From: Neophaeotheca triangularis
Lineage: Eukaryota
Length of the DNA stretch: 64,000 nt
Assembly (NCBI GenBank): GCA_054600435.1
Contig: BAAIJX010000003.1
Location: forward strand, 186,001-250,000
Direction of reading: 5' to 3'
Numbering within the stretch: position 1 is the stretch's first letter; every line of letters starts with the position of its first letter. This document shows, piece after piece, positions 8,575 through 42,833 of the stretch. The translations under genes were made by a program, and so were the position numbers. Below the pieces are notes generated by a model. It was given only the letters and a program-made list of their open reading frames with translations, had not been told where the DNA came from and did no database searches.

Positions 8575-10332
8575 ATGGCACGACCACCGCAATACGAAAC
8601 CATCCCTTACCCTTATGACGCCGGGCCCCTCGGCCACGTCCAAGGCCTAGCAGTATCCAGTGCTGCGGAGCCGTCCCACCACCTCCTCTACTACTTCGGC
8701 GGTATCCCCTACGCCCAACCGCCAGTAGGCCCCTATCGATTCCGACGAGCTCGCCAACTCCCACCTTGCTACCGCTACGGAACACGCGCGAGCCCAGCAA
8801 ACTTCACTGGAGGCCATGGAGTCTGTCCCCAACCCGGGTGGCTAGGTCCCCCCGACACTACCCTCTGGGATGAGAATTGCTTGCAACTTAACATTTACAT
8901 CCCGAACGGGGAGCGGCCGGGGAAAGGCTGGCCTGTTTACTTCTACATCCACGGTGGTTTCTTGCAGTGGGGCCAAGCGAACGATTCTCCAGAAGCCCTG
9001 ACGCCTCTGTTGAGCGAAACGGGCTTCAAAGCGATAATAGTGCAACCTGCGTACCGCCTCAACGCTCTAGGCTTCCTAGCCTCGGAGGCCCTCGCCGCTG
9101 AGGCTAAAGCAAACAATGAAACAGTCGGCAACCTTGGTTTCTGGGATCAACGGTAAAGACCACCTTTCAAATCTCAATCAGCCGTACAGAGCAACCACTA
9201 ACCCCACCCCAGCCTCGCACTCGAATGGACACGAAAGAACATCACCCTTTTCGGTGGCAACCCCAGCAACCTCACCCTCGCCGGATACAGCGCCGGCGCC
9301 CACAGCACCTTCATGCAACTCGCGCACGAACTCTACCGGGTACCATCAGAAAAAGCAATAATCAAAAACTGCATAATGTTCTCCAACAGCCCAGGCGTTC
9401 AACCGAAAACCCTCCACGAACACTCCAGCCAATACGACGAGCTCCTAACCGCCCTATCCATCCCATCACACCTCCCGGCAAGCGAGAAACTCAACCGTCT
9501 CCGCTCCCTCCCCGCAGCCAGCATCGCCAACCCCCCAATCCCCCTAGCGCAGTCCGAATTCCGCGCCCTCAGCGACGGCGCCTTCATCCCCCTCGATCTC
9601 ATCCACTCCATCAACACCGGCGACTTCGCCTCGCGCATGAAAGCCCGCGGAATCAAACTCCTAACCGGCGAAACCCGCGACGAGCACAACCTCTACCGAC
9701 ACTGGCGCACGCCCCTCAACAATTTCCCTGCCCTCCACAAACGGCTGTGCGCAGACTACCCCCGCGCCGCCGTCGACAAGCTACTAAAACACTACTGCGG
9801 CTCCCTAGCCTCCCCAAGCCTACCAAAAGGGATACAAGACTGGCGACACCTCTTCGGCCACATCTACGCCGCCATGCAGGTCCACGGCCTCCAGCGCGGC
9901 TTTCTGGATAAACTGACCAACCCCGAAACCAAAACCCCCGTCGACGACTCTTCCCCTTTTCTGAAACCCGGTCGAGACCTCTTCCGCTACCGCATCGAAT
10001 ACCGCTGCAAAGTCTCCGATACCACGATCCCCCCGGAATGGGGCGTGACCCACGCGACAGACATGGCCGCGATTTGGCAGTGGGGCCAGGGTAAATTGCG
10101 GAAATCGGAGAAGAATGCTGTGGCGCCTTGGTTGACGGTTTTGGGGACTTTTGTGGCGGGCGGGGAACTGGAGTGGGGGACCAATCGGATCAGGGAGATG
10201 CGGAGGTTGAGGGGGGACGGGAGTACGGATGTTTGGCGGGATGAGGGGTGGGAGGAGGGGGTGGGGGTTTGGGAAGTAGTTAACGGTGAGGTTGAGGGTG
10301 AGGTTGAGGGAGGGGAGAAGGCGAGGTTGTAG
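8575..10332 (+). CDS. Type-B carboxylesterase (alpha/beta hydrolase) with C-terminal PTS1-like -ARL
   Basis: GIPYAQPPVG..RF, ENCLQLNIY, IHGGFLQ, YRLNALGFL, GNLGFWDQR, nucleophile elbow GYSAG, THATD. Intron 9153-9212. Confidence 0.9.
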
Positions 10333-31980: not shown

Positions 31981-34176
31981 TTACCACAACTTCTCCTTCT
32001 CCTGCCTCTTTGCAAGCCCCTCTGGCTTCCGCATAAAACAGTCCAGCAGCACACCAGCAGCAACACCAACGTTCAAGCTCTCAACGCCTACATCCACAAC
32101 CTCCACCGGCCTCCCCTTTTCGCCCGTAACTTCATTTTGTCGCCTGTTGCTCGAATCTCCCCACTTGTTAGCGACAGGCTTACTCGGCCCGCCGATAACG
32201 GAAACCTCCCTGTCCGCCCTTCTCAGCATGATTTCTCTCAACCCCTCGCCCTCCGCTCCTAACATTAGAATGCAAGGATCTTTCGCCAGGGGACTGTCTT
32301 TGCTTAGGACCTCCGAAGTGACGTGTTTACCGGCCTTGCTCGTCGTCATGAAATTCGGATCCGGTGGCGCGACCGAGGCGTAGACTTTCCACTGCCCAAC
32401 TTTCTGGCTATCGTAAATGAAGCCGGAGGGCTTAGGTGCGCCGAGAATCGTTAGAGCCTCGCAGGCGCCTGCGCTCGCTTTGGCGACGACTGCCGAGGAG
32501 AGTGGTGCGCAGGTGTTGGTTGCAACGACTACAGCGTCGACAGAATAGAAGTGAGCCGTACGTAAGATGTTACCCAGGTTACCTGGGTCCGTGATGCCGT
32601 CGAGGAAGAGGACGAGAGGGTAGCGCCAGCGGTTCGCTCCTGAGGAGGCGGGAAGGGCCGAGGGGGCGCCGTTGATGGAGATTTCTTCGGCAGATTGAGG
32701 GCATAACCTCAAGGGGATGATGGCGTGTTTCTGGTTGTGCTTGCCTAGGGAAAGCACTGGGGGAGAGGGCAAGCCAGAGGCTTCGAGAACGAAGTTGTTG
32801 TGGGGTCTGTCACCGCTCATGGCGTTTAGTAGACGAACGGATTGGTTGGGACGGATAGGGATTTTGTGTTTTCTTGCGAGTTGCAACATCTCGTCGCGGG
32901 CAGGTGAGACGGGGCCGTCGCGGAATTGGCGAGCGGTGTGGAGGGCGTAAAGCTTTCGTCGCCCTGCTCGGAGCGCGGCTAGTACAGTGTTGGTACCGTA
33001 AAGGAACTGGGAAGAAGCAGTACTATATGGTATGGAGACCGGGTGGCCATCTGCGTCATCGTCGGATACTTGGGATGGCTCTACGGAAGCTGCCTTTTGC
33101 TGTTGTTCCTTCTTTTCGCGTTCCGAGACCTGCAACGCTTCCGTGAGCTTTGCAACGTCCCTTTTCAGATCCGAAAGCTCCGTTCCCTCTGCTTCTGCTC
33201 GCTTCTTCAGCCAGATCAGATCCCGGTCGAGTGCTTGGGTTTGATCTGCCATGTCCACGCGCGAATCGGGTTGCCTCGAGCCGCCAGGTGGCAGTCTCTC
33301 TTTCATCATTTTCTCAATCATTCGAACGATCCGCTCAGACGCATTCTTCTCGTCGTGTTCCCGAGACCTTTGAGGGATGAATTTTGGTTTCCTATCTACC
33401 GCCCTATTATGCATCCTAAAGGATCCGTGAAGATGCGAAGTGAGGAGCTCGTATTTGCCGTTCCCTGTCGTCCAAAGCACGGTATATGCGCCCAATGGTC
33501 TATCCTCGGTGCGACGATAGACACGGCTTGGCATATGCTGCTTCAGGTACCGGTGAAACGACACGTTGCTGTGGTGATTCTTGTTCACCCACTTAACCAT
33601 CTTCCTTGCTCTATTGATGTGCAGCTGCAACCCAGAATTGTCTAGCGAACCCTCGACCTCTGAATCATGCAATGTAACGACATGGTCTGACAGCTCGTTC
33701 GCAAGCTCTTCTGGGTCAACAGGCATGGGTGCTTCTTCAACTAAAGCTCGCGGAGTTTCAGGATCTGAATCCCTGGGTTGACGATGCGGTGACGGAGGAC
33801 CTGCGAACGCATCGCCTGAGCTCTCTGAGACCTGCCTCACGATTCTGAGACCTTCCCTGCGCGGCTTCTTCAAATGATTTCCAGTCGCGATTTGACTCGC
33901 GGACTGCTTTTGGGATGGGTTCTGCCTTTCCGCTTCGTCGTTGGGCTCAGATAAAAGTGCTCTCTTTTCACGCCGGGGCAATCGTGCATCCTCACGTCGC
34001 ATTGGCTTGCTCCGTCCGCGGCCGGAGTCTCTGGAAGCGCGGAGGCCCTTGTTGATTGCGGAAGTGGTGGAGATGCCGCGATTGAGACATGACGGGCATG
34101 ATGGGCATGATGGCGAGAACAAGGTCAGCCATTTGGTGTAGAACAAGGGCGTTAGAGCAGTGCGCGGTACTGTCAT
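31981..34176 (-). CDS. MRM1: Mitochondrial rRNA 2'-O-methyltransferase (SpoU/TrmH family)
   Basis: SIPYSTASSQFLYG, RPHNNFVLEAS, LDGITDPGNLGNILRTA, KASAGA, LGAEGEGL, VESLNVGVAAG. Confidence 0.88.
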   Translation of the reverse strand: MTVPRTALTPLFYTKWLTLFSPSCPSCPSCLNRGISTTSAINKGLRASRDSGRGRSKPMRREDARLPRREKRALLSEPNDEAERQNPSQKQSASQIATGNHLKKPRREGLRIVRQVSESSGDAFAGPPSPHRQPRDSDPETPRALVEEAPMPVDPEELANELSDHVVTLHDSEVEGSLDNSGLQLHINRARKMVKWVNKNHHSNVSFHRYLKQHMPSRVYRRTEDRPLGAYTVLWTTGNGKYELLTSHLHGSFRMHNRAVDRKPKFIPQRSREHDEKNASERIVRMIEKMMKERLPPGGSRQPDSRVDMADQTQALDRDLIWLKKRAEAEGTELSDLKRDVAKLTEALQVSEREKKEQQQKAASVEPSQVSDDDADGHPVSIPYSTASSQFLYGTNTVLAALRAGRRKLYALHTARQFRDGPVSPARDEMLQLARKHKIPIRPNQSVRLLNAMSGDRPHNNFVLEASGLPSPPVLSLGKHNQKHAIIPLRLCPQSAEEISINGAPSALPASSGANRWRYPLVLFLDGITDPGNLGNILRTAHFYSVDAVVVATNTCAPLSSAVVAKASAGACEALTILGAPKPSGFIYDSQKVGQWKVYASVAPPDPNFMTTSKAGKHVTSEVLSKDSPLAKDPCILMLGAEGEGLREIMLRRADREVSVIGGPSKPVANKWGDSSNRRQNEVTGEKGRPVEVVDVGVESLNVGVAAGVLLDCFMRKPEGLAKRQEKEKLW

Positions 34177-34530
34177 TGCATGTTGTTATGATGAGATGCC
34201 TACTTCAGCAGGAAGAAGGACGAAAAATTAAAGGGTGAATGTTGTATCCATGAATGTTGCTGCGGTTGGGGCATGGGCCACATAACGGCCTTGGCAATAT
34301 ACATCGAAGTCGCGTTCGATGAGCACGCGTCAAGATCTCTCTCCCCCCTCTTAGCCACAACATCACTTCGGGGGTTATCGACGATGTCAGTGTTTCGGCC
34401 GGATCGCGTTGTTCTCGCGACCAAGTGACATTGTCGAAAATCACCGTATCGATCACTTGGAGATACCACAAATCGCTGCCTACCTAATCTACGAGCTCCG
34501 ACCAACGTCAGTCCCTCATCAATCGTAGCC

Positions 34531-37500
34531 ATGTCATTCAATTTCGCAGCACAGCTCGATTCCGACGAGGAGACCGCGCCGCCTTTGGACCTGTCAGAGT
34601 GGACATCAACCGTAGACAAGAAGCGCAAACGTCCATCGCCTAACCCAGATCCTCCAGTCCCGCGCCAGCAGTCTTCGGGCTTTCAGGCAGTCAATGCGCC
34701 GGCTCTGGGACTTCTACCGCCAGCTCCCATGGCCCCGATAGATCTAGAGGAAGATTTTGTCATTCAAGACGACCAACACCAAGGCGAAAGTGCGCCGACT
34801 CGGGGGGTCTTTGCTCTGTCTGATGATGAAGGGCAGAGTGCCGGCCAAGCTGAGGAGAGTGACGACTTGATCGAGTTGCCGGACGCGCCTGCACCAGCAG
34901 AAGGTTTGCCAGCTGCTGAAACTTCGGATACGATCGCTGTGACGGGTCCCAAGGTCGTGATTGTGATTCCGCAGCAGAAGAGGAGCAGATCGAGCAGCGT
35001 CGTGGACTTCACACAAGGTGGTGATATTGTCCGCCGTGTCTTGGGAGAGCTTGAGGAGCTGGATGCCAACGGAAGATCGATATACCAGGTCGAGTTCGAG
35101 GATAGGCATACAGAAGAGGTAGGTTCACTCTCCTTCATCCATTGCTGTTTGCGCCGCGTTGCACGCTTCATTCGTCAAGTCTATTTCGCTTCATATGGCC
35201 TGAGATGGCTTCATTTCGCATGTTTAGCCTTCATTGTCACCAAAGCTGCCTCTGTGCGCCTACAGGAAGGATCTGAATCCTCTTCCCCTCTCCTTTCCTT
35301 CTCTTCTTACACCCACAACCTACTCCCAACAACAATACCACGGTCGATCGATATCTGCCTCGACCATATCGAGAGCAATCCCTTGCCAGTAGCAGTACTG
35401 CAGCGGGTTCGAAACAACGACTGCGAAGCGAAGGCCAGGTGTCATATCAGCAAGTGTTCGTTGCGGCCTTCCCAGCACTTCAAGCCTTCATTCTGCTAGC
35501 CGCTATTGCTGCTTATTGACCCTTTCTCATCTTTTCCCTCCCCTACTGGTCACCTTGTTTTCCAAGAAAGATGACCTGCTAATAGCTCATTCGCTAGCAA
35601 CCCTATGACACAGTAATTCGATATCACAACGGCAAACAAGCATATCAGACATTTGTAAACACCCCAGCTCCAGAACCCTCACTCGAGCCGGCGGCAAAGC
35701 GGACTTCTACCGAGGCGACCAAAATGTCGTCAAGCCGCCCAGGCAGAAGAACTACTCAGCGGACGGGCATGGTGAGCACCATAGACAACGTCTCGGACGA
35801 AGGAAATGCTGGAAACAGCTCCGACGAAGAGATTGAGCTCGAGCCTCGTCCCTTTGGACGCCGCAAGAAGAAGCAATACCACGCTCAATATGTAGACGAA
35901 GGAGCAGACGAAGAAGACGAAGAAGTTGATGCCAAGAACTCCGAGGAAGACACGGGCAGGCGTCCGGGTCTACGACGTGGTCTACGCAAGCCAAAGCCAC
36001 AGCCAGTGGGGGTGAGCTTGCGTAGTGCTGATGTTGATGACGGCTCCGACTCAGAGGGCGCGATACCGTTTCTGCAGTCAGATCTACCTGGCACTCGTCG
36101 AACTCGCAAGATGCGCTCTCAAGGCCCTGCCGCCGATTTCGTCGAGGACGAAGGAGACGACATTGGCTACAACAACGCTAAGAAGAAAGCCATTCATGCT
36201 GGAGAGCGGCAATCTACTCGTGCAGGCAGACATACGCGTGGGATGGAGGAGGTTGGCGAAGATAACATCTTCCGGTCCGACTCCGATGATGCTGCTCGCC
36301 CGCCACCCAAGCCCAAGGCTACTGGTGCCCGCGAAGCTTTCAAACAGCTTCCACGCAACGACGAGTTCCGGATGCGCCACAACCAGCAGTGTGAAACGTG
36401 CGGCAATGGTAACAACTTCGCTCCAATCATCTATTGCCAGGGATGCACGCTCGCCTATCACAAAGGCTGCCTGGGACACCGTACCACTCGTGAGCACCTA
36501 GTCACCAAGATTGGGGATGGCAACTTTGTTCTCCAATGCCGTCGTTGTATCGCGTTTCCTAAGAGCAAAGACCCGACCGCTCCTGACCAAGGCAAGTGCC
36601 AAGATTGTCACAACCACGGCCCTTCCAACAAGCCTTTCCGCCCACGCAAGACCCCAGCCCAGGAGCAGAGGGATCGCGATGAGAACGATGGCGAAGATCC
36701 CATCTATAACATCCACGAGGACCGCATCAACAAGGCCGACAACGTCATGTTCCGCTGCTTGCAGTGCTTCAGAGGCTTCCACTTCGAACACCTTCCATCT
36801 CGTTCGGACATGATGGACATCGACATGGAGGTGGACCCAGAACAACGCTTCCGCGAGTACAGCCGCGACTGGAAGTGCAAAGATTGCGCCACCATGCCTG
36901 CCAAAGTCTCTGGCATCATCGCTTGGAAGCCCATCGACGAAGACATCTACGATCCTGCCGTCCCTTATGACAAAGTTAGCGAAGACGACAAAGCGTACCT
37001 GCTCAAGTGGGAAGGCATGTCTTACTTTCAAGCTATGTGGATGCCCGGGCCGTGGGTCTGGGGAGTTACAGCGTCTTCAATGCGCAAAGCGTTTGGCAAG
37101 CGCGAGGATGCTCAGAACCCCAAGATGCGAACCGAAGCAGCTATCCCAGAGGACTTTCTCCGTGCCGATATTGTACTAGACATCAAGTATACCTCATTTG
37201 TCGACATTCGGGGAGAGGAGATTGACAAAGCTCGCATCCGTGAGATTGACAAGGCACTCGTCAAATACAAGGGTCTTGGCTACGAGGACGCCGTCTGGGA
37301 GGCACCGCCATCACCAGACGACGGCGACCGCTGGACTGACTTCGTGACTGCTTACAACGACTGGGTGTTGGGGCGTTACGTCAAGCAACCTGGCGCCAAA
37401 TCTCTCAAGAACAAGATCGAAAAGGCTCGCAACCAAGACTTCTCCAAGCTCGAGAAGGACTCTCAGCCCGAGAACATGAAGGGCGGCGAGCTCATGAAGT

Positions 37501-40500
37501 ATCAGATTGACGGTCTCAACTGGCTATACTACAAGTGGTACACTCAGAAGAACGCAATTCTGGCTGACGAGATGGGTCTCGGCAAGACAATCCAGATCAT
37601 TGCCTTTTTGGCCACATTGGTGCAGGACTGGAGCTGCTTCCCCTTCCTCATTGTCGTACCCAACTCGACGTGTCCCAACTGGCGCAGGGAGATCAAGCGC
37701 TGGGCCCCGAGCTTGCGCGTTGTTGCTTTCTTTGGCAGCAAAGAGAGTCGCGATCTCGCCTACAAATACGAGATGTTTCCCGAGAACAGCAAGGACCTCA
37801 AATGCCATGTGGTGGTAACGTCTTACGATGCTGCCGCTGACGACAGCTGCCGCAAGTTCTTCCGATCGGTGCCCTGGCAAGGTCTTATCGTCGACGAAGG
37901 CCAGCGTCTGAAGAACGACAAGAACCAACTTTATTCCGCTCTAAACGCCCTCAAATTCCCCTTCAAGGTCCTGCTCACTGGAACACCGTTGCAGAACAAC
38001 CAACGCGAGCTGTTCAACCTCTTGCACTTCCTTGACGAAAGCTACAACGCCGAGCAGCTGGACCAGGAGTATTCCGAGCTCAACAAGGACAGCATTCACC
38101 AGCTTCATGATCTCATTCGACCCTTCTTCTTGCGCAGAACGAAGGCTCAAGTGCTCACCTTCCTTCCACCAATGGCGCAGATCATCTTACCCGTCAGCAT
38201 GTCCCTCGTGCAGAAGAAACTCTACCGTAACATCTTGGCCAAGAATCCAGATCTCATCCGCGCCATTTTTGCGTCAGACAGCAACGCCACTCTTGGTAAA
38301 GGCGAACGAGGCAGCCTGAGCAACATCCTTATGCAGTTGCGAAAGTGTCTTTGCCATCCGTTTGCGTACAACAGATCCATTGAAGAGCGCAATGTCGACC
38401 ATGCGATCTCCCACCGCAATCTCGTCGACGCCAGCAGCAAGCTCAAGCTTCTTGAAGTCCTTCTGCCGAAGCTCAGAGAACGTGGTCACCGTGTGCTCAT
38501 CTTCAGTCAATTCCTCGACATGCTCGACATGACTGAAGACTTCCTTGACGGTATGGAGATGCCTTATCAACGTCTTGACGGCTCGATTGGCAGCCTGCAA
38601 AAGCAGAAGCGCATCGACGAGTTCAACGAGCCGGGATCTCCATTGTTCGCCTTCCTGCTTTCCACTCGTGCTGGAGGTGTAGGCATCAACCTTGCCACTG
38701 CCGACACTGTCATCATCCTTGATCCCGACTTCAACCCTCATCAAGACATTCAAGCTCTGTCGCGTGCGCATCGTATCGGGCAGCACAAGAAGGTTCTATG
38801 CTTTCAGCTCGTCACCCGTGCTTCCGCGGAAGAGCGCATCATGCAGATCGGACGCAAGAAGCTAGCACTCGATCATGTACTCATCGAATCCATGGATGCA
38901 GACGACGCTAGCAACAACGATCTGGTATCTGTCCTTCGACACGGTGCGAGCGAACTCTTCAGCGACGATGGCGACCAAGACATCGTCTATGACAGCAACA
39001 GCGTAGAGCACCTTCTAGACCGAAGCCACATGGAAGATACGCAGACAGGTGCAGACAAGAGTGCGGAAACGCAATTTTCGTTTGCACGTGTCTGGGCGAA
39101 CGACTCGGGTGCTCTCGAAGAATCAACAGCCGTGGAAGACGCCGAGCAATTGCCGCCTCCGGATCCGGGTGTCTGGGATGCCATCCTCAAAGAGCGCGAA
39201 CGCGCAGCTGCAGAAGAAGCAGCCGCCAAAGTCGAAGCCTTTGGCCGTGGTCGCCGAAATCGCCACGCCATCGACTATGGCACTGACAGAGCTCCGGACG
39301 ATGCTATGGACCTCGATCCATTGCCAGGCAAGAGGAGCGGCAAGAAGGTCAAAGACGATGACGCCAGCGACACGGATTTCCAGGCCGAGGAGTCGGAGCC
39401 CGAGAGCGGTGCGGAAGAAGGTGAGCAACAGCTTGACGCCGACGATATCGATGCTGTACGAGGTGGGGAGGAAGACGGAACTAATCGTACCACAGGCAAA
39501 AAGAAGGGTAAGAAAGCTCCATCTTCTACTACCACGTCTACTCCCCAATCCACTCCTGCGAAGCCCAAAGCGAACGCCAAGCTGCAGACTTCTGCTTCCA
39601 ACGTGAAGAAGCCTGGTGCTGTTGGTGCTACGCTAGGCAAGAGCAAAGCAAAGGCGACGTATTCTGCTTCCGACATGAAGAAAACGCTCGCTGCTGCCGC
39701 TGAAGCTAAGAGGGCCACGAAGCCTGCGATTGCTTCGCCGAAGAGGAAGGCTGCTGCTACGTCTAAAGCTGCTCCCGCGGCGAAGAAGGGAAAAGTTTCT
39801 CAAGTCAAAGGCATAGGCAACGATCGTTTCGTCGGTCTGGCCGTCATGCCTCGGTCCGACGAAGTCTACACTGTTGTCGATTTGGTCTCTGAGAGTGAGG
39901 AAGAAGAGAGTCCGAAGGCGACCGCTGCTATGGATGAGACTTCGGATGGTCCCGTGAAGAAGTCTCTACCAGAAGGGGCGACCAAGGATGGCGTTGTCAT
40001 GACAGATGCAACGAAAGCACTTGGCGGCGATACTGGAACCACTGAAGGCGAAAGAGACGAGCCTACTGCCGTCGAACCTAGCGTCTCAGACAAGGGCGGC
40101 AAGGTCGACGACAAAGTGGGAGTCGTCTCTGCCCCGTCCGCTTCTCTGCAACCGCTCGAGTTGGCCAGCCCGATGCTCGACTTCACCACCACTCCTTCTA
40201 CCCTAAAACCAGCCGCTCAATCTTCAACAGATGCGGCGGCAGCCCCGACATCATAACTTTCCTAGTACTACAAGCAACCAAAATGCCCTCCCCAACTGCC
40301 GAAGCTAACTTCCTCTTTTCACAGACATGCCAGCCGGTCAATTTCGCCGCGTCGTAGTCCCCAACACCACCCCAGCAAACCCCCTCATCAACAACAACAG
40401 CACTACCCACGACCCCACCAACACCGCCGCCAGCATTCAAGCCTACCGCCACCAACAATCCCTGGCCCCCCACCCCAACCAAGAAAACATGCTCAACTGC

Positions 40501-41027
40501 CTCGCTTGCCGCACGTACCATGCCGTCGGCTACTGCCCGCTCAAAGTCGCCGGCGTCGAGAGATGCAACCTCTGCGGCCTGGCGCACTACGGCCACGCGC
40601 GCGTCTGCCCCCATTTGCAGAGCGAGACCCAAGTAAGCAACCCCACAACTCACTTCCACCTAAAACCCCCTCCACTAACAATATTGTGCCACAAAAGGTA
40701 CGCGCCATGCTCTCGGCTCTCAAACAATCCCAAGAACCAGCCCACCTCGTCAACGAAGCCCGCAAGTACCTCAAGGGCTTGAAGGGCAATCTGGTGCAAC
40801 TGAAGAAGCAAAAAGCGGCCAAAGAACACGCTATCAAGGAGGCCGAAGCCGCCAATGCGAATGTCAACCAGCAGGCTCACATGGGCTTGTACGGGGGATC
40901 TGCGGGAGCGGGTGGCGGATACTCGTCTGCTATGGGCTATGGCGGGTATGGGGGTGGATATAATGGAGGTAGTTACAATGGCAGCGGCGGGGTGCCGCCG
41001 GGGTTTTTCGATAAGTTTAGGGCTTAG
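34531..41027 (+). CDS. CHD/Mi-2 family chromatin remodeller, Mit1-like (PHD-like fingers, chromodomains, SNF2 ATPase, C-terminal zinc finger)
   Basis: Proposed exons 34531-35118, 35598-39507, 40325-40632 and 40698-41027, all in frame with GT-AG introns. LADEMGLGKT, DEGQRLKN, LTGTPLQNN, LLSTRAGGVGINL, QALSRAHRIGQ. Last exons carry CLAC..H..G.CPLK..GVERCNLCGLAHYG..CPH. An unspliced isoform would stop at 40256. Confidence 0.9.
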
Positions 41028-42031
41028 GCGGGGAAGGAGGAAGGCTCGAGCAGGGTTTGGAGGCGGATGGGTGCTTTTGGTGGTATAGATGGGAATCGGT
41101 GCTTAGCTTGCTGTTGCACAAAAGTCTAGTATATAGATTCCCAACCACGATTCGAGCGCGACGATTGCCTTCGCCAGCTTTTACTTGAATGCTGCTCTCG
41201 AGCTTGCAGGTTACATACGCCGTGAACATACCTTTTTTCGGAAAAGGAAAGGCCGACGCGGTCCCAGCGTCCCAAGTCGAGGTCTTGGAAACGCCTCAGC
41301 ACCGCACCGCACCGCAACCCTCTCTACCCCGTATTCGTGTTCTTTGCGTCAAGCACTATTCGAAATTACTAGCCAGTTAGCCCGCAGTGGCGAAAGAAGA
41401 TCCTGGCCTCCTTTTCCCCACTCATTGCTTTGCCTTTTCTACCATCCTCCCCCTGTCTGACGAAAACGCGGCAACCGATCTCTTGAAACGCCGTCCCGTG
41501 GTCGTGAGAGAAACACCGAGGACCCTCGCTTTCCCACCGACTCATCTGGCCAAAAAGCTGGAAGAAAAGTCTTTCTTGCTTACCCAGCCACCACCTACCT
41601 ACCTCAACACCCACCTCGATGGAAGAAACCGCGAATGAGAGAAAGAAAAGGAAGCCTTCCAATGAATACAAAACAAAATAATAGAGCATCTCATGCAAAC
41701 AGTGGTATCTCTCGAAAAAAGGGAGTGAATGCCGGAGTGCGCGTGCGCGTTGTACATGAACGACAGCACGCACAGTCATCGACCCGGGGAAAAACAGCAC
41801 CAAAGACCGACAGACAGTGAACGATTCCCTACGCTCGTCGCTTAGATTCACATGCACGCACTGCCTCCTTTTTTGGCGTTGGGGAAGCACGACTTCTGCC
41901 TTGTGCTTGCATGCAGTACCACTTCCCCCTCTTGGGCCCTTCTGTCTTACGCCACGTCTTTTCTTTTGCGTTTTTCCTTTCTTCAAGGGTGAAAGATTTT
42001 GCTTGCCGTCTTTCCTATGTTTGCATCGGGA

Positions 42032-42833
42032 CTATCTGTCCGGCTCGTTGGCGTCAGGGGGGTTGAAGAGACCGAAGCGCATACGGTGGAGCTGGTGGCT
42101 GGCTGTCAGTACAACAGAACGAGACCAAAGAATGCAAAAGAGGTTGTGGAGCAGTGCTCACCGCAGGCAACTTAGGCACGACAACAGCCAGAGTCGCAGC
42201 AAAATTGACCAAAAAGTAGACACCATCGTAATGCGTGTAGTGTGTGCTGACCAAAAACAACACGATCGGCACGCTGAGGAGGAATTTCTTCGCCGGGGTG
42301 TATTGGTCGCCGTTGTCGATTTGCTCCCACATGTTGAGGTTGTCGTAGGCGCCTGCGTTGAATTCAAAAGGCACGCCGCGTACCCAGTGGAACATTAGGT
42401 AGGAGCCGAGCATGTAGATGACGTTTGTGAGGGTCCAGGATGTTTCTTGCGAGATGCCGGGGATTGTGAGGGTAAGGATTTTTAAGAGCATGATTAGGAG
42501 AGGGTGGATGAGCCAGGCGCCTGAAGGGGGAAAGGGGGGTTAGCTGGACTCTTTTGTTCGTTTTGCATGTCCAGTGTCTGAGATGGTGTAGCGATAACCC
42601 CAGTCATTGACTCTCTTCTTTTTCTTCACATCTCAACGCCGTTTGCGCCATGCTATCTTGCCCCTTTGGGATCGTACATGAAATGGGACATGCTCACCTT
42701 TGGCATTGACCCATTGGCTGTTCAAATTCGGCAGCGCAGACTGGTCGCTCATATGCTCCAGACTCTCCGGCGGTTCTTGGTACATCAGACTGCTACTCCT
42801 CCGTCTCCGCCGGTTCTTGTCTGCGCTGGCCAT
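42032..42833 (-). CDS. ORM1: ORM/ORMDL family regulator of serine palmitoyltransferase
   Basis: Exons 42833-42698, 42520-42162 and 42091-42032. NLNSQWVNAKGAW, FHWVRGVPFE, LNMWEQID, QYTPAKKFL, PKLPALHRMR. Confidence 0.94.

Follow-up and report, generated by a model that had tools for sequence, protein, structure and literature searches.

The subject of this report is a gene for a chromatin remodeler of the Mit1 (Mi-2/CHD) type in the dothideomycete Neophaeotheca triangularis, located in a 64,000-nucleotide (nt) stretch of assembly GCA_054600435.1 (contig BAAIJX010000003.1, positions 186,001-250,000 of the forward strand) that we refer to as the window and in which all positions are counted from the first letter. 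Near the 3' end of its coding region the gene has an intron of 817 nt, here termed intron B, that is itself a long open reading frame (ORF), and the exons encoding the Mit1-type zinc fingers lie beyond it. We judge it likely, with some reserve, that this is one Mit1 gene with an alternative 3' end that has been maintained by selection, one form ending in the zinc fingers and the other in a basic tail with a pattern resembling a SUMO-interacting motif (SIM). Two proteins that differ in their ends are probably made from the gene, and its annotation as two genes is wrong. In the NCBI annotation the locus consists of two hypothetical proteins, g3902 (P0009, 1748 aa), whose model reads through intron B and a smaller upstream intron A and ends at the stop at 40256, and g3903 (P0005, 211 aa), whose model starts at the ATG at 40327. 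The features of the gene are as follows (^ marks a splice cut).

34531-35118 (+), exon 1, 196 codons from the ATG; identical to residues 1-196 of the NCBI model P0009, with GTAGGT next.
35119-35597 (+), intron 1, 479 nt, GTAGGT..CTAATAGCTCATTCGCTAG; implied by the NCBI model P0009.
35598-39420 (+), exon 2, encoding a zf-PHD-like domain, the MIT1 chromodomain, the SNF2 ATPase, Helicase_C and an acidic linker; from Pfam on P0001, with the 3' end from an RNA contig.
39421-39495 (+), intron A, 75 nt, GTGAGC..ACTAATCGTACCACAG, in frame, stop-free and exitron-like; absent from the RNA contig (record 5, run X2).
39496-39507 (+), micro-exon, 12 nt, completing a Gly codon and encoding Lys-Lys-Lys and the first base of Asp; the letters in the RNA contig equal 39497-39506.
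39508-40324 (+), intron B (the "coding intron"), 817 nt, G^GTAAGA..GCTAAC..CACAG^; skipped in the RNA contig, with its signals kept in relatives.
39510-40256 (+), alternative C-terminal ORF within intron B, 248 codons plus TAA; from translation and composition, the homologous tails being open.
39873-39908 (+), SIM-like VVDLVSESEEEE, a hydrophobic core with an acidic/Ser run; from the sequence pattern.
39895-39900 (+), possible distal donor, A^GTGAGG, that would join in frame to the 40324 acceptor; from a pattern scan and frame arithmetic.
40325-40632 (+), zinc-finger exon 1, with the FRRV motif, the first finger and the first half of PF18585; from Pfam, PDB 5IKF and, up to 40514, the RNA contig.
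40633-40697 (+), intron C, 65 nt, GTAAGC..CACTAAC..AAAAG, with PF18585 positions 1-25 and 26-52 on either side; spliced in the NCBI model P0005.
40698-41027 (+), last exon, with the remaining half of PF18585, a helix rich in Lys, a Gly/Tyr-rich end and the stop; from Pfam, identity to P0005 and a contig of run X1.

A preliminary description of this DNA, made from the letters alone, had the main ORF running to a stop at 40256 with the zinc finger encoded downstream, and this is borne out by the ORF list, in which a stop-to-stop ORF for the remodeler spans 35598..40256 (+; 1552 aa, with its TAA at 40254-40256), and by the matches of the downstream exons to PF18585 and 5IKF. The in-frame join that it proposed between a donor at 39508 and an acceptor at 40324 also holds. 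The donor reads AAG G^GTAAGA, with its GT at 39508-39509, the acceptor region, GCTAAC..TTCCTCTTTTCACAG^, ends at 40324, and the single leftover G (39507) combines with AC into an Asp codon, after which ATG CCA GCC GGT encodes Met-Pro-Ala-Gly. The length of the intron had been given correctly, and its open frame, put at about 249 codons, comprises 248 full codons in frame 0; 8 and 9 stops interrupt the two remaining forward frames, and we estimate from the stop density that the chance of such an open frame is about 4e-4. The 248 residues include 42 Ala, 30 Lys, 28 Ser, 27 Thr, and 20 Pro, and are arranged as a basic Ala/Lys/Ser/Thr/Pro-rich part followed by an acidic, Ser/Thr-rich part, with the tail stop at 40256 being 68 nt ahead of the 40324 acceptor. 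In the tail VVDL is followed by VSESEEEE, a psi-psi-x-psi core plus acidic/Ser run that fits the definition of a SIM, so that by its pattern this segment is a candidate for one.

Transcript evidence was drawn from two metatranscriptome runs, whose word shares were small (0.10 and 0.06) and whose contigs were placed on positions 37500-41100. One contig from run X2 (301 nt, depth 2.3) covers 39322-39421, continues with 10 letters and then covers 40324-40514, with an identity to the window of about 98% (5 differences in 291 aligned bases, 1 and 4 in its two parts). The 10 letters equal 39497-39506 and, with the G's shared at their flanks, the joins are 39420^39496-39507^40325. The contig therefore confirms the intron B junction 39507^40325, for which the preliminary description had proposed a check in RNA, and it also reveals intron A (39421-39495, GTGAGC..ACTAAT..ACAG) and the 12-nt micro-exon (39496-39507), both of which that description had missed. 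A contig from run X1 covers 40712-41100. Neither run provided a contig inside 39508-40324, which has no bearing on retention. The junction is present in none of the 23 database proteins that have the zinc finger only (P0129-P0150 and P0007), and the models for these proteins start at assorted spurious or internal Met residues. When fully spliced from exon 1, the coding sequence encodes 1686 aa without an internal stop, and the introns of the gene measure 479, 75, 817, and 65 nt; since intron 1 has 479 nt, intron B is not its sole long intron.

The zinc-finger exons are part of the remodeler gene and belong to the same polypeptide as the ATPase, which is a Mit1, Mi-2-type CHD protein. In P0001 the ATPase core matches PF00176 (219.8 bits) and PF00271 (Helicase_C, 81 bits), and N-terminal to it are matches to PF15446 (PHD-like finger, 232.5 bits) and PF23615 (MIT1-type chromodomain, 110.6 bits). 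The two downstream exons match PF18585, "Chromatin remodeling factor Mit1 C-terminal Zn finger 2", with 47.2 and 32.5 bits (cut-off 26.7), and, as one exon has positions 1-25 and the next has positions 26-52, the domain is split by the 65-nt intron C. The same region matches PDB 5IKF, "Chromatin remodeling factor mit1" (E=1.5e-9). In Schizosaccharomyces pombe, according to two sources, the C-terminal domain of Mit1 binds Clr1 and is needed for establishing silencing (PMC6499331; bioRxiv 10.64898/2026.05.03.722496), and the binding of Clr1 by the Mit1 zinc fingers ties the remodeler to the SHREC deacetylase module. The second source also describes that truncation of the C-terminus of tethered Mit1 abolished the establishment of silencing (bioRxiv 10.64898/2026.05.03.722496).

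At the other end of the gene, exon 1 has a partial match to DUF7141 (Pfam), and intron 1 interrupts this N-terminal DUF7141-like domain. The end of the zinc-finger isoform (40860-41024) is a Gly/Tyr-rich low-complexity segment with a weak match to a GRP family (E=0.0043), and the corresponding ends in relatives are Gln/Gly/Tyr-rich (e.g., P0015 and P0143-P0150).

Metagenome contigs were scanned with a zinc-finger alignment, which gave 41 loci, 33 of which include both the region before the tail and the zinc finger. After the removal of duplicates, the architecture of the window was found in nine of these (L001, L003, L016, L017, L030, L032, L034, L037, and L040) and in five partial loci (L007, L027, L031, L039, and L041). 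In all 14 the ATPase ORF extends for 135-201 codons to a stop, which is followed by the ..PTFRR.. exon. The other distinct loci have a short linker, the acidic DTDF anchor and the first Cys-x-x-Cys being 274-444 nt apart where this is measurable, and in three of them (L023, L026, and L033) the short linker is part of one continuous ORF. Three loci (L012, L025, and L036) had too little upstream sequence and were left unclassified. As a side observation, the second finger of L016 (about 9030-9060) reads VEHFNLCG where all other loci have Cys, possibly because of a sequencing error or a damaged copy.

The splice signals around the tail are conserved. The tail starts with an in-frame GGT AAG (G^GTAAG) in the window and in all 12 relatives for which the region is present, while at other Gly-Lys dipeptides in seven of the same ORFs GGTAAG occurs once in 36 cases and its expected frequency from codon usage is about 0.2 (GGT being 0.21-0.36 of Gly codons and AAG 0.61-0.87 of Lys codons). 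The cag^ acceptor is conserved three codons ahead of TFRR and joins in frame. In relatives the intron has a length of 453-564 nt, with the tail stop 7-46 nt ahead of the acceptor. None of eight full loci has an in-frame ATG ahead of the conserved PTFRR motif, including one locus with no ATG in the 150 residues examined, and the zinc-finger exon therefore cannot be an independent gene; the ATG at 40327 in the window is lineage-specific. Intron A is similarly maintained, its donor GGT GAG being present in nine of nine loci; 12-15 nt ahead of the intron B donor an AG in the matching phase is likewise found in all nine, and the equivalent of the micro-exon in relatives is a 15-nt unit. The peptide encoded by intron A is conserved too, alongside the splice signals.

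The interior of intron B behaves as coding sequence. Although the tail sequences are strongly diverged, the ORF has stayed open in the window and in each of the 14 tail-type loci. The ratio of nonsynonymous to synonymous substitution rates (dN/dS; Nei-Gojobori, nine pairs from two groups of relatives) is 0.19-0.41 for the tail and 0.02-0.11 for the upstream exon. With nucleotide alignments that were made blind to the protein, frame 0 gives dN/dS values of 0.19-0.45, with bootstrap upper limits of at most 0.69, and the shifted frames on the same alignments give 0.78-1.58. In addition, all ten indel runs in the tail are multiples of three. On these comparisons the interior of the intron is under purifying selection at the protein level in the relatives. 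The preliminary description had proposed to examine ORF conservation and dN/dS in orthologous loci and had named an intron ORF broken in close relatives as a finding against its proposal; in the relatives the ORF is unbroken. An antisense gene was considered as the source of the constraint and rejected: some loci do have antisense frames that stay open along most of the tail, but in four sequences they do not, the longest there being 92 of 163 residues (L001), 74 of 158 (L003), 106 of 165 (L016), and 116 of 248 aa (window).

Selection on the tail is accompanied by a recurring layout. The part before the motif has 20-26% K+R and 2-7% D+E, and a hydrophobic core followed by acidic residues occurs at the equivalent place in nine of nine loci (VIDLD, PILLDD, IILADSDDED, VINLVSES, and VVDLVSESEEEE). 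P0010, the model from the closest relative, has kept 60 of the 114 residues in the basic part and 28 of the 62 that follow, and its upstream 400 aa are 88.5% identical. The tail had been described as a Lys/Ala-rich, H1-like segment with a SIM; the basic stretch and the hydrophobic-acidic motif do recur, but no signature of an H1 or AT-hook family and no GRP core was recognized in the tail of the window, which is H1-like in composition only. An AT-hook-like KKRGRP(K/E)K core is present in the middle of the tail in five of 13 related loci (L001, L016, L039, L040, and L041), a weaker KKGRP is found in the tails of L032 and L034, and the window tail has no AT-hook-like core.

The existing gene models of orthologs vary in how they treat this region. 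Among 120 listed relatives of the C-terminal region we distinguished models that end in a Lys/Arg-rich tail and lack PF18585 (e.g., Hortaea P0040, Vermiconidia P0023, and Zymoseptoria brevis P0083), models that have both the tail and the zinc finger (e.g., Fulvia fulva P0019, Zasmidium P0024, Pseudocercospora P0089, and Oleoguttula P0102), and models in which a short linker leads straight to the zinc finger (e.g., Cercospora P0082, Lecanosticta P0050, and those of Botryosphaeriales). There are also models with the zinc finger only (Meristemomyces frigidus P0129 and Septoria linicola P0130), and the contig of the Septoria CHD model P0071 equals in length that of the zinc finger-only model. Such scatter would be expected of predictors faced with a shared ambiguous structure.

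We propose that the gene has two outputs. In the spliced form, which is the form seen in RNA, the 39508 donor is used, the 817 nt are removed and the ATPase body, the micro-exon and the zinc-finger exons would make up a protein of 1686 aa. In the retained form, to which the evolutionary evidence points, the donor would be left unused, through intron retention or intronic polyadenylation, and translation would proceed for 248 more codons. The resulting protein, of 1723 or 1748 aa, would be without the Clr1-binding fingers and would instead have a basic stretch of about 120 aa, the SIM-like motif and an acidic, Ser/Thr-rich end. How much of the remodeler is coupled to SHREC, as opposed to free and directed by the basic/SIM tail, may depend on the ratio of the two forms. 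A more specific proposition, which we regard as possible but doubtful, is that across a large clade of Capnodiales-type Dothideomycetes the conserved 5' splice site serves as a regulated switch by which Mit1 loses the Clr1-binding zinc fingers, is thereby uncoupled from the SHREC deacetylase module, and is re-addressed by the basic tail, which in some lineages is AT-hook-like, and a SUMO-binding motif. Were this so, heterochromatin remodeling would be tuned by splicing, possibly as part of a stress response.

Several observations weigh against two outputs of this kind. Only the spliced form was seen in RNA, and this in a single contig of low depth (2.3) from a metatranscriptome of a near-identical organism and not of this strain. 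In an mRNA that retains intron B, the 3' region would span about 770 nt and include another intron, an arrangement that in many eukaryotes would invite nonsense-mediated decay. The window tail matches no Pfam family, the best match being a sub-threshold one to DUF7072 (E=0.26). Furthermore, the SIM core is not universal, since in P0010 its hydrophobic residues are degraded, with WKPTDL in place of the TVVDL of the window. Lastly, use of the candidate distal donor at 39895, directly after VVDLVSE, would yield a protein of 1815 aa that combines tail and zinc finger, and several ortholog gene models place both features in one protein.

The last of these points leads to the alternative that the tail and the zinc finger are made as one protein by means of a shorter intron (39895 to 40324), which would take out no more than the end of the tail with its stop, with the skip from 39508 as a minor alternative. 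The 39895 site is in frame and gives an uninterrupted ORF of 1815 aa, and tail and zinc finger are combined in the ortholog models P0019, P0024, P0089, P0100, and P0102. However, the sole RNA contig uses 39508 and not 39895, and we found no conserved distal donor in the tails of relatives: five of eight have no GTRNG site within the tail, the remainder have none that is position-conserved, and the 39895 site itself is not conserved. In addition, the tail stop is 7 nt before the acceptor in three relatives, which leaves no space for a separate short intron, and the strict GGTAAG at the tail start would be inexplicable if the site were not a donor. We consider this arrangement unlikely. It does affect the earlier claim of two mutually exclusive C-termini, of which the spliced zinc-finger form and the coding nature of the intron have stood; because an in-frame donor at 39895 could give a tail plus a zinc finger, exclusivity is unproven in the window, while in relatives it is favored by the five of eight tails without a GTRNG site. 

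Two further alternatives, both improbable in our estimation, would retain only one of the two ends. If intron B were constitutive and its open frame a relic that is never translated, then the detection of the spliced form alone in RNA would be expected, and the short-linker orthologs (L023, L026, L033, Cercospora P0082, and Lecanosticta P0050) indicate that the protein works without a tail. Against such a relic are the 14 of 14 tail-type loci, and the window, in which the ORF has stayed open despite divergence, the dN/dS of 0.19-0.45 in the ORF frame only, the ten of ten indel runs in multiples of three and the conserved composition and motif. Conversely, if the tail form ending at 40256 were the main product, with the RNA junction being splicing noise and the zinc fingers rarely attached, this would agree with the output of gene predictors, which for many genomes end the protein within the tail, and with the lack of PF18585 in most of the 120 listed models. 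It would not agree with the conservation of the donor, the acceptor and the PTFRR/zinc-finger exon, which has no start codon of its own in eight of eight relatives, nor with the definition of PF18585 as the Mit1 C-terminus, nor with the need for this C-terminus in the establishment of silencing in S. pombe. The NCBI arrangement of two independent genes, g3902 ending at 40256 and g3903 starting from the ATG at 40327, we consider scarcely credible. It has in its favor that exactly P0009 and P0005 are annotated and that zinc finger-only models exist elsewhere (P0129 and P0130), but the gap between the two is just 70 nt, the RNA contig bridges it, the relatives have no ATG ahead of the conserved motif and the zinc finger-only models begin at assorted spurious or internal Met residues. 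An independent transcript at 40327-41027, which the preliminary description had named as a finding that would overturn its proposal, is contradicted by the same bridging contig and the same absence of a start codon.

Both the family of this protein and the general way of producing an alternative C-terminus, by leaving a splice site unused, are already known. The secreted and membrane forms of the immunoglobulin heavy chain have alternative C-termini of the composite terminal exon/intron-retention kind. As in that system, the use of one 5' splice site would decide between an intronic stop and downstream exons. The present case differs in that it is from a filamentous or black-yeast fungus and is conserved in many lineages, and in that we infer the retained form. 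Exitrons, or exonic introns, are internal to a coding exon, have a length that is a multiple of three, are stop-free and are spliced out in some transcripts. Intron A fits this description, being 75 nt long, internal, open, coding-conserved in relatives and spliced in the RNA contig, whereas intron B, with 817 nt, is not a multiple of three, has a stop and 68 nt of non-coding sequence and changes the C-terminus. In the limited collection of literature that was searched no study of fungal exitrons was found among the eight of nine papers listed, the term occurring there in plant papers.

With respect to the candidate SIM, one paper describes that SIMs of human CHD3 (Mi-2 alpha) bind SUMOylated KAP1 (PMC5577459). 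The window protein is likewise a Mi-2-class remodeler with a SIM pattern, a resemblance that is one of pattern only, and, unlike in CHD3, the SIM-like motif would be in the zinc-finger-less form only. The closest counterpart is Mit1 of S. pombe, the ATPase of the NuRD-like SHREC complex, which has the same domain order (PHD-like finger, MIT1 chromodomain, SNF2, Helicase_C, and zinc fingers). The present clade departs from it in having, between the ATPase body and the fingers, a coding intron of 453-817 nt with a basic/SIM-like tail. In the same limited literature collection we found no account of an alternative C-terminus for Mit1, and in bioRxiv 10.64898/2026.05.03.722496, which it included, the word "isoform" is absent.

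Mit1 and SHREC are a reference system for the coupling of remodeling and deacetylation in heterochromatin. If the two-protein reading is correct, a natural and conserved isoform that lacks the coupling domain would serve as a separation-of-function allele that is already at hand, and the gene would exemplify intron retention that is functional and maintained by selection in fungi, whose alternative splicing is usually put down to noise. A more immediate consequence is that, because the annotation is split here and models elsewhere have the zinc finger only or the tail only, ortholog tables and domain inventories for this remodeler are wrong in the clade.

The remodeler gene is flanked upstream by a divergent gene for a SpoU-type RNA methyltransferase (31981-34185, minus strand) and downstream by a convergent gene of the ORMDL family (42054-42539, minus strand). 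Based on the placement of these neighbors, the 3' untranslated region of the remodeler is at most about 1 kb.

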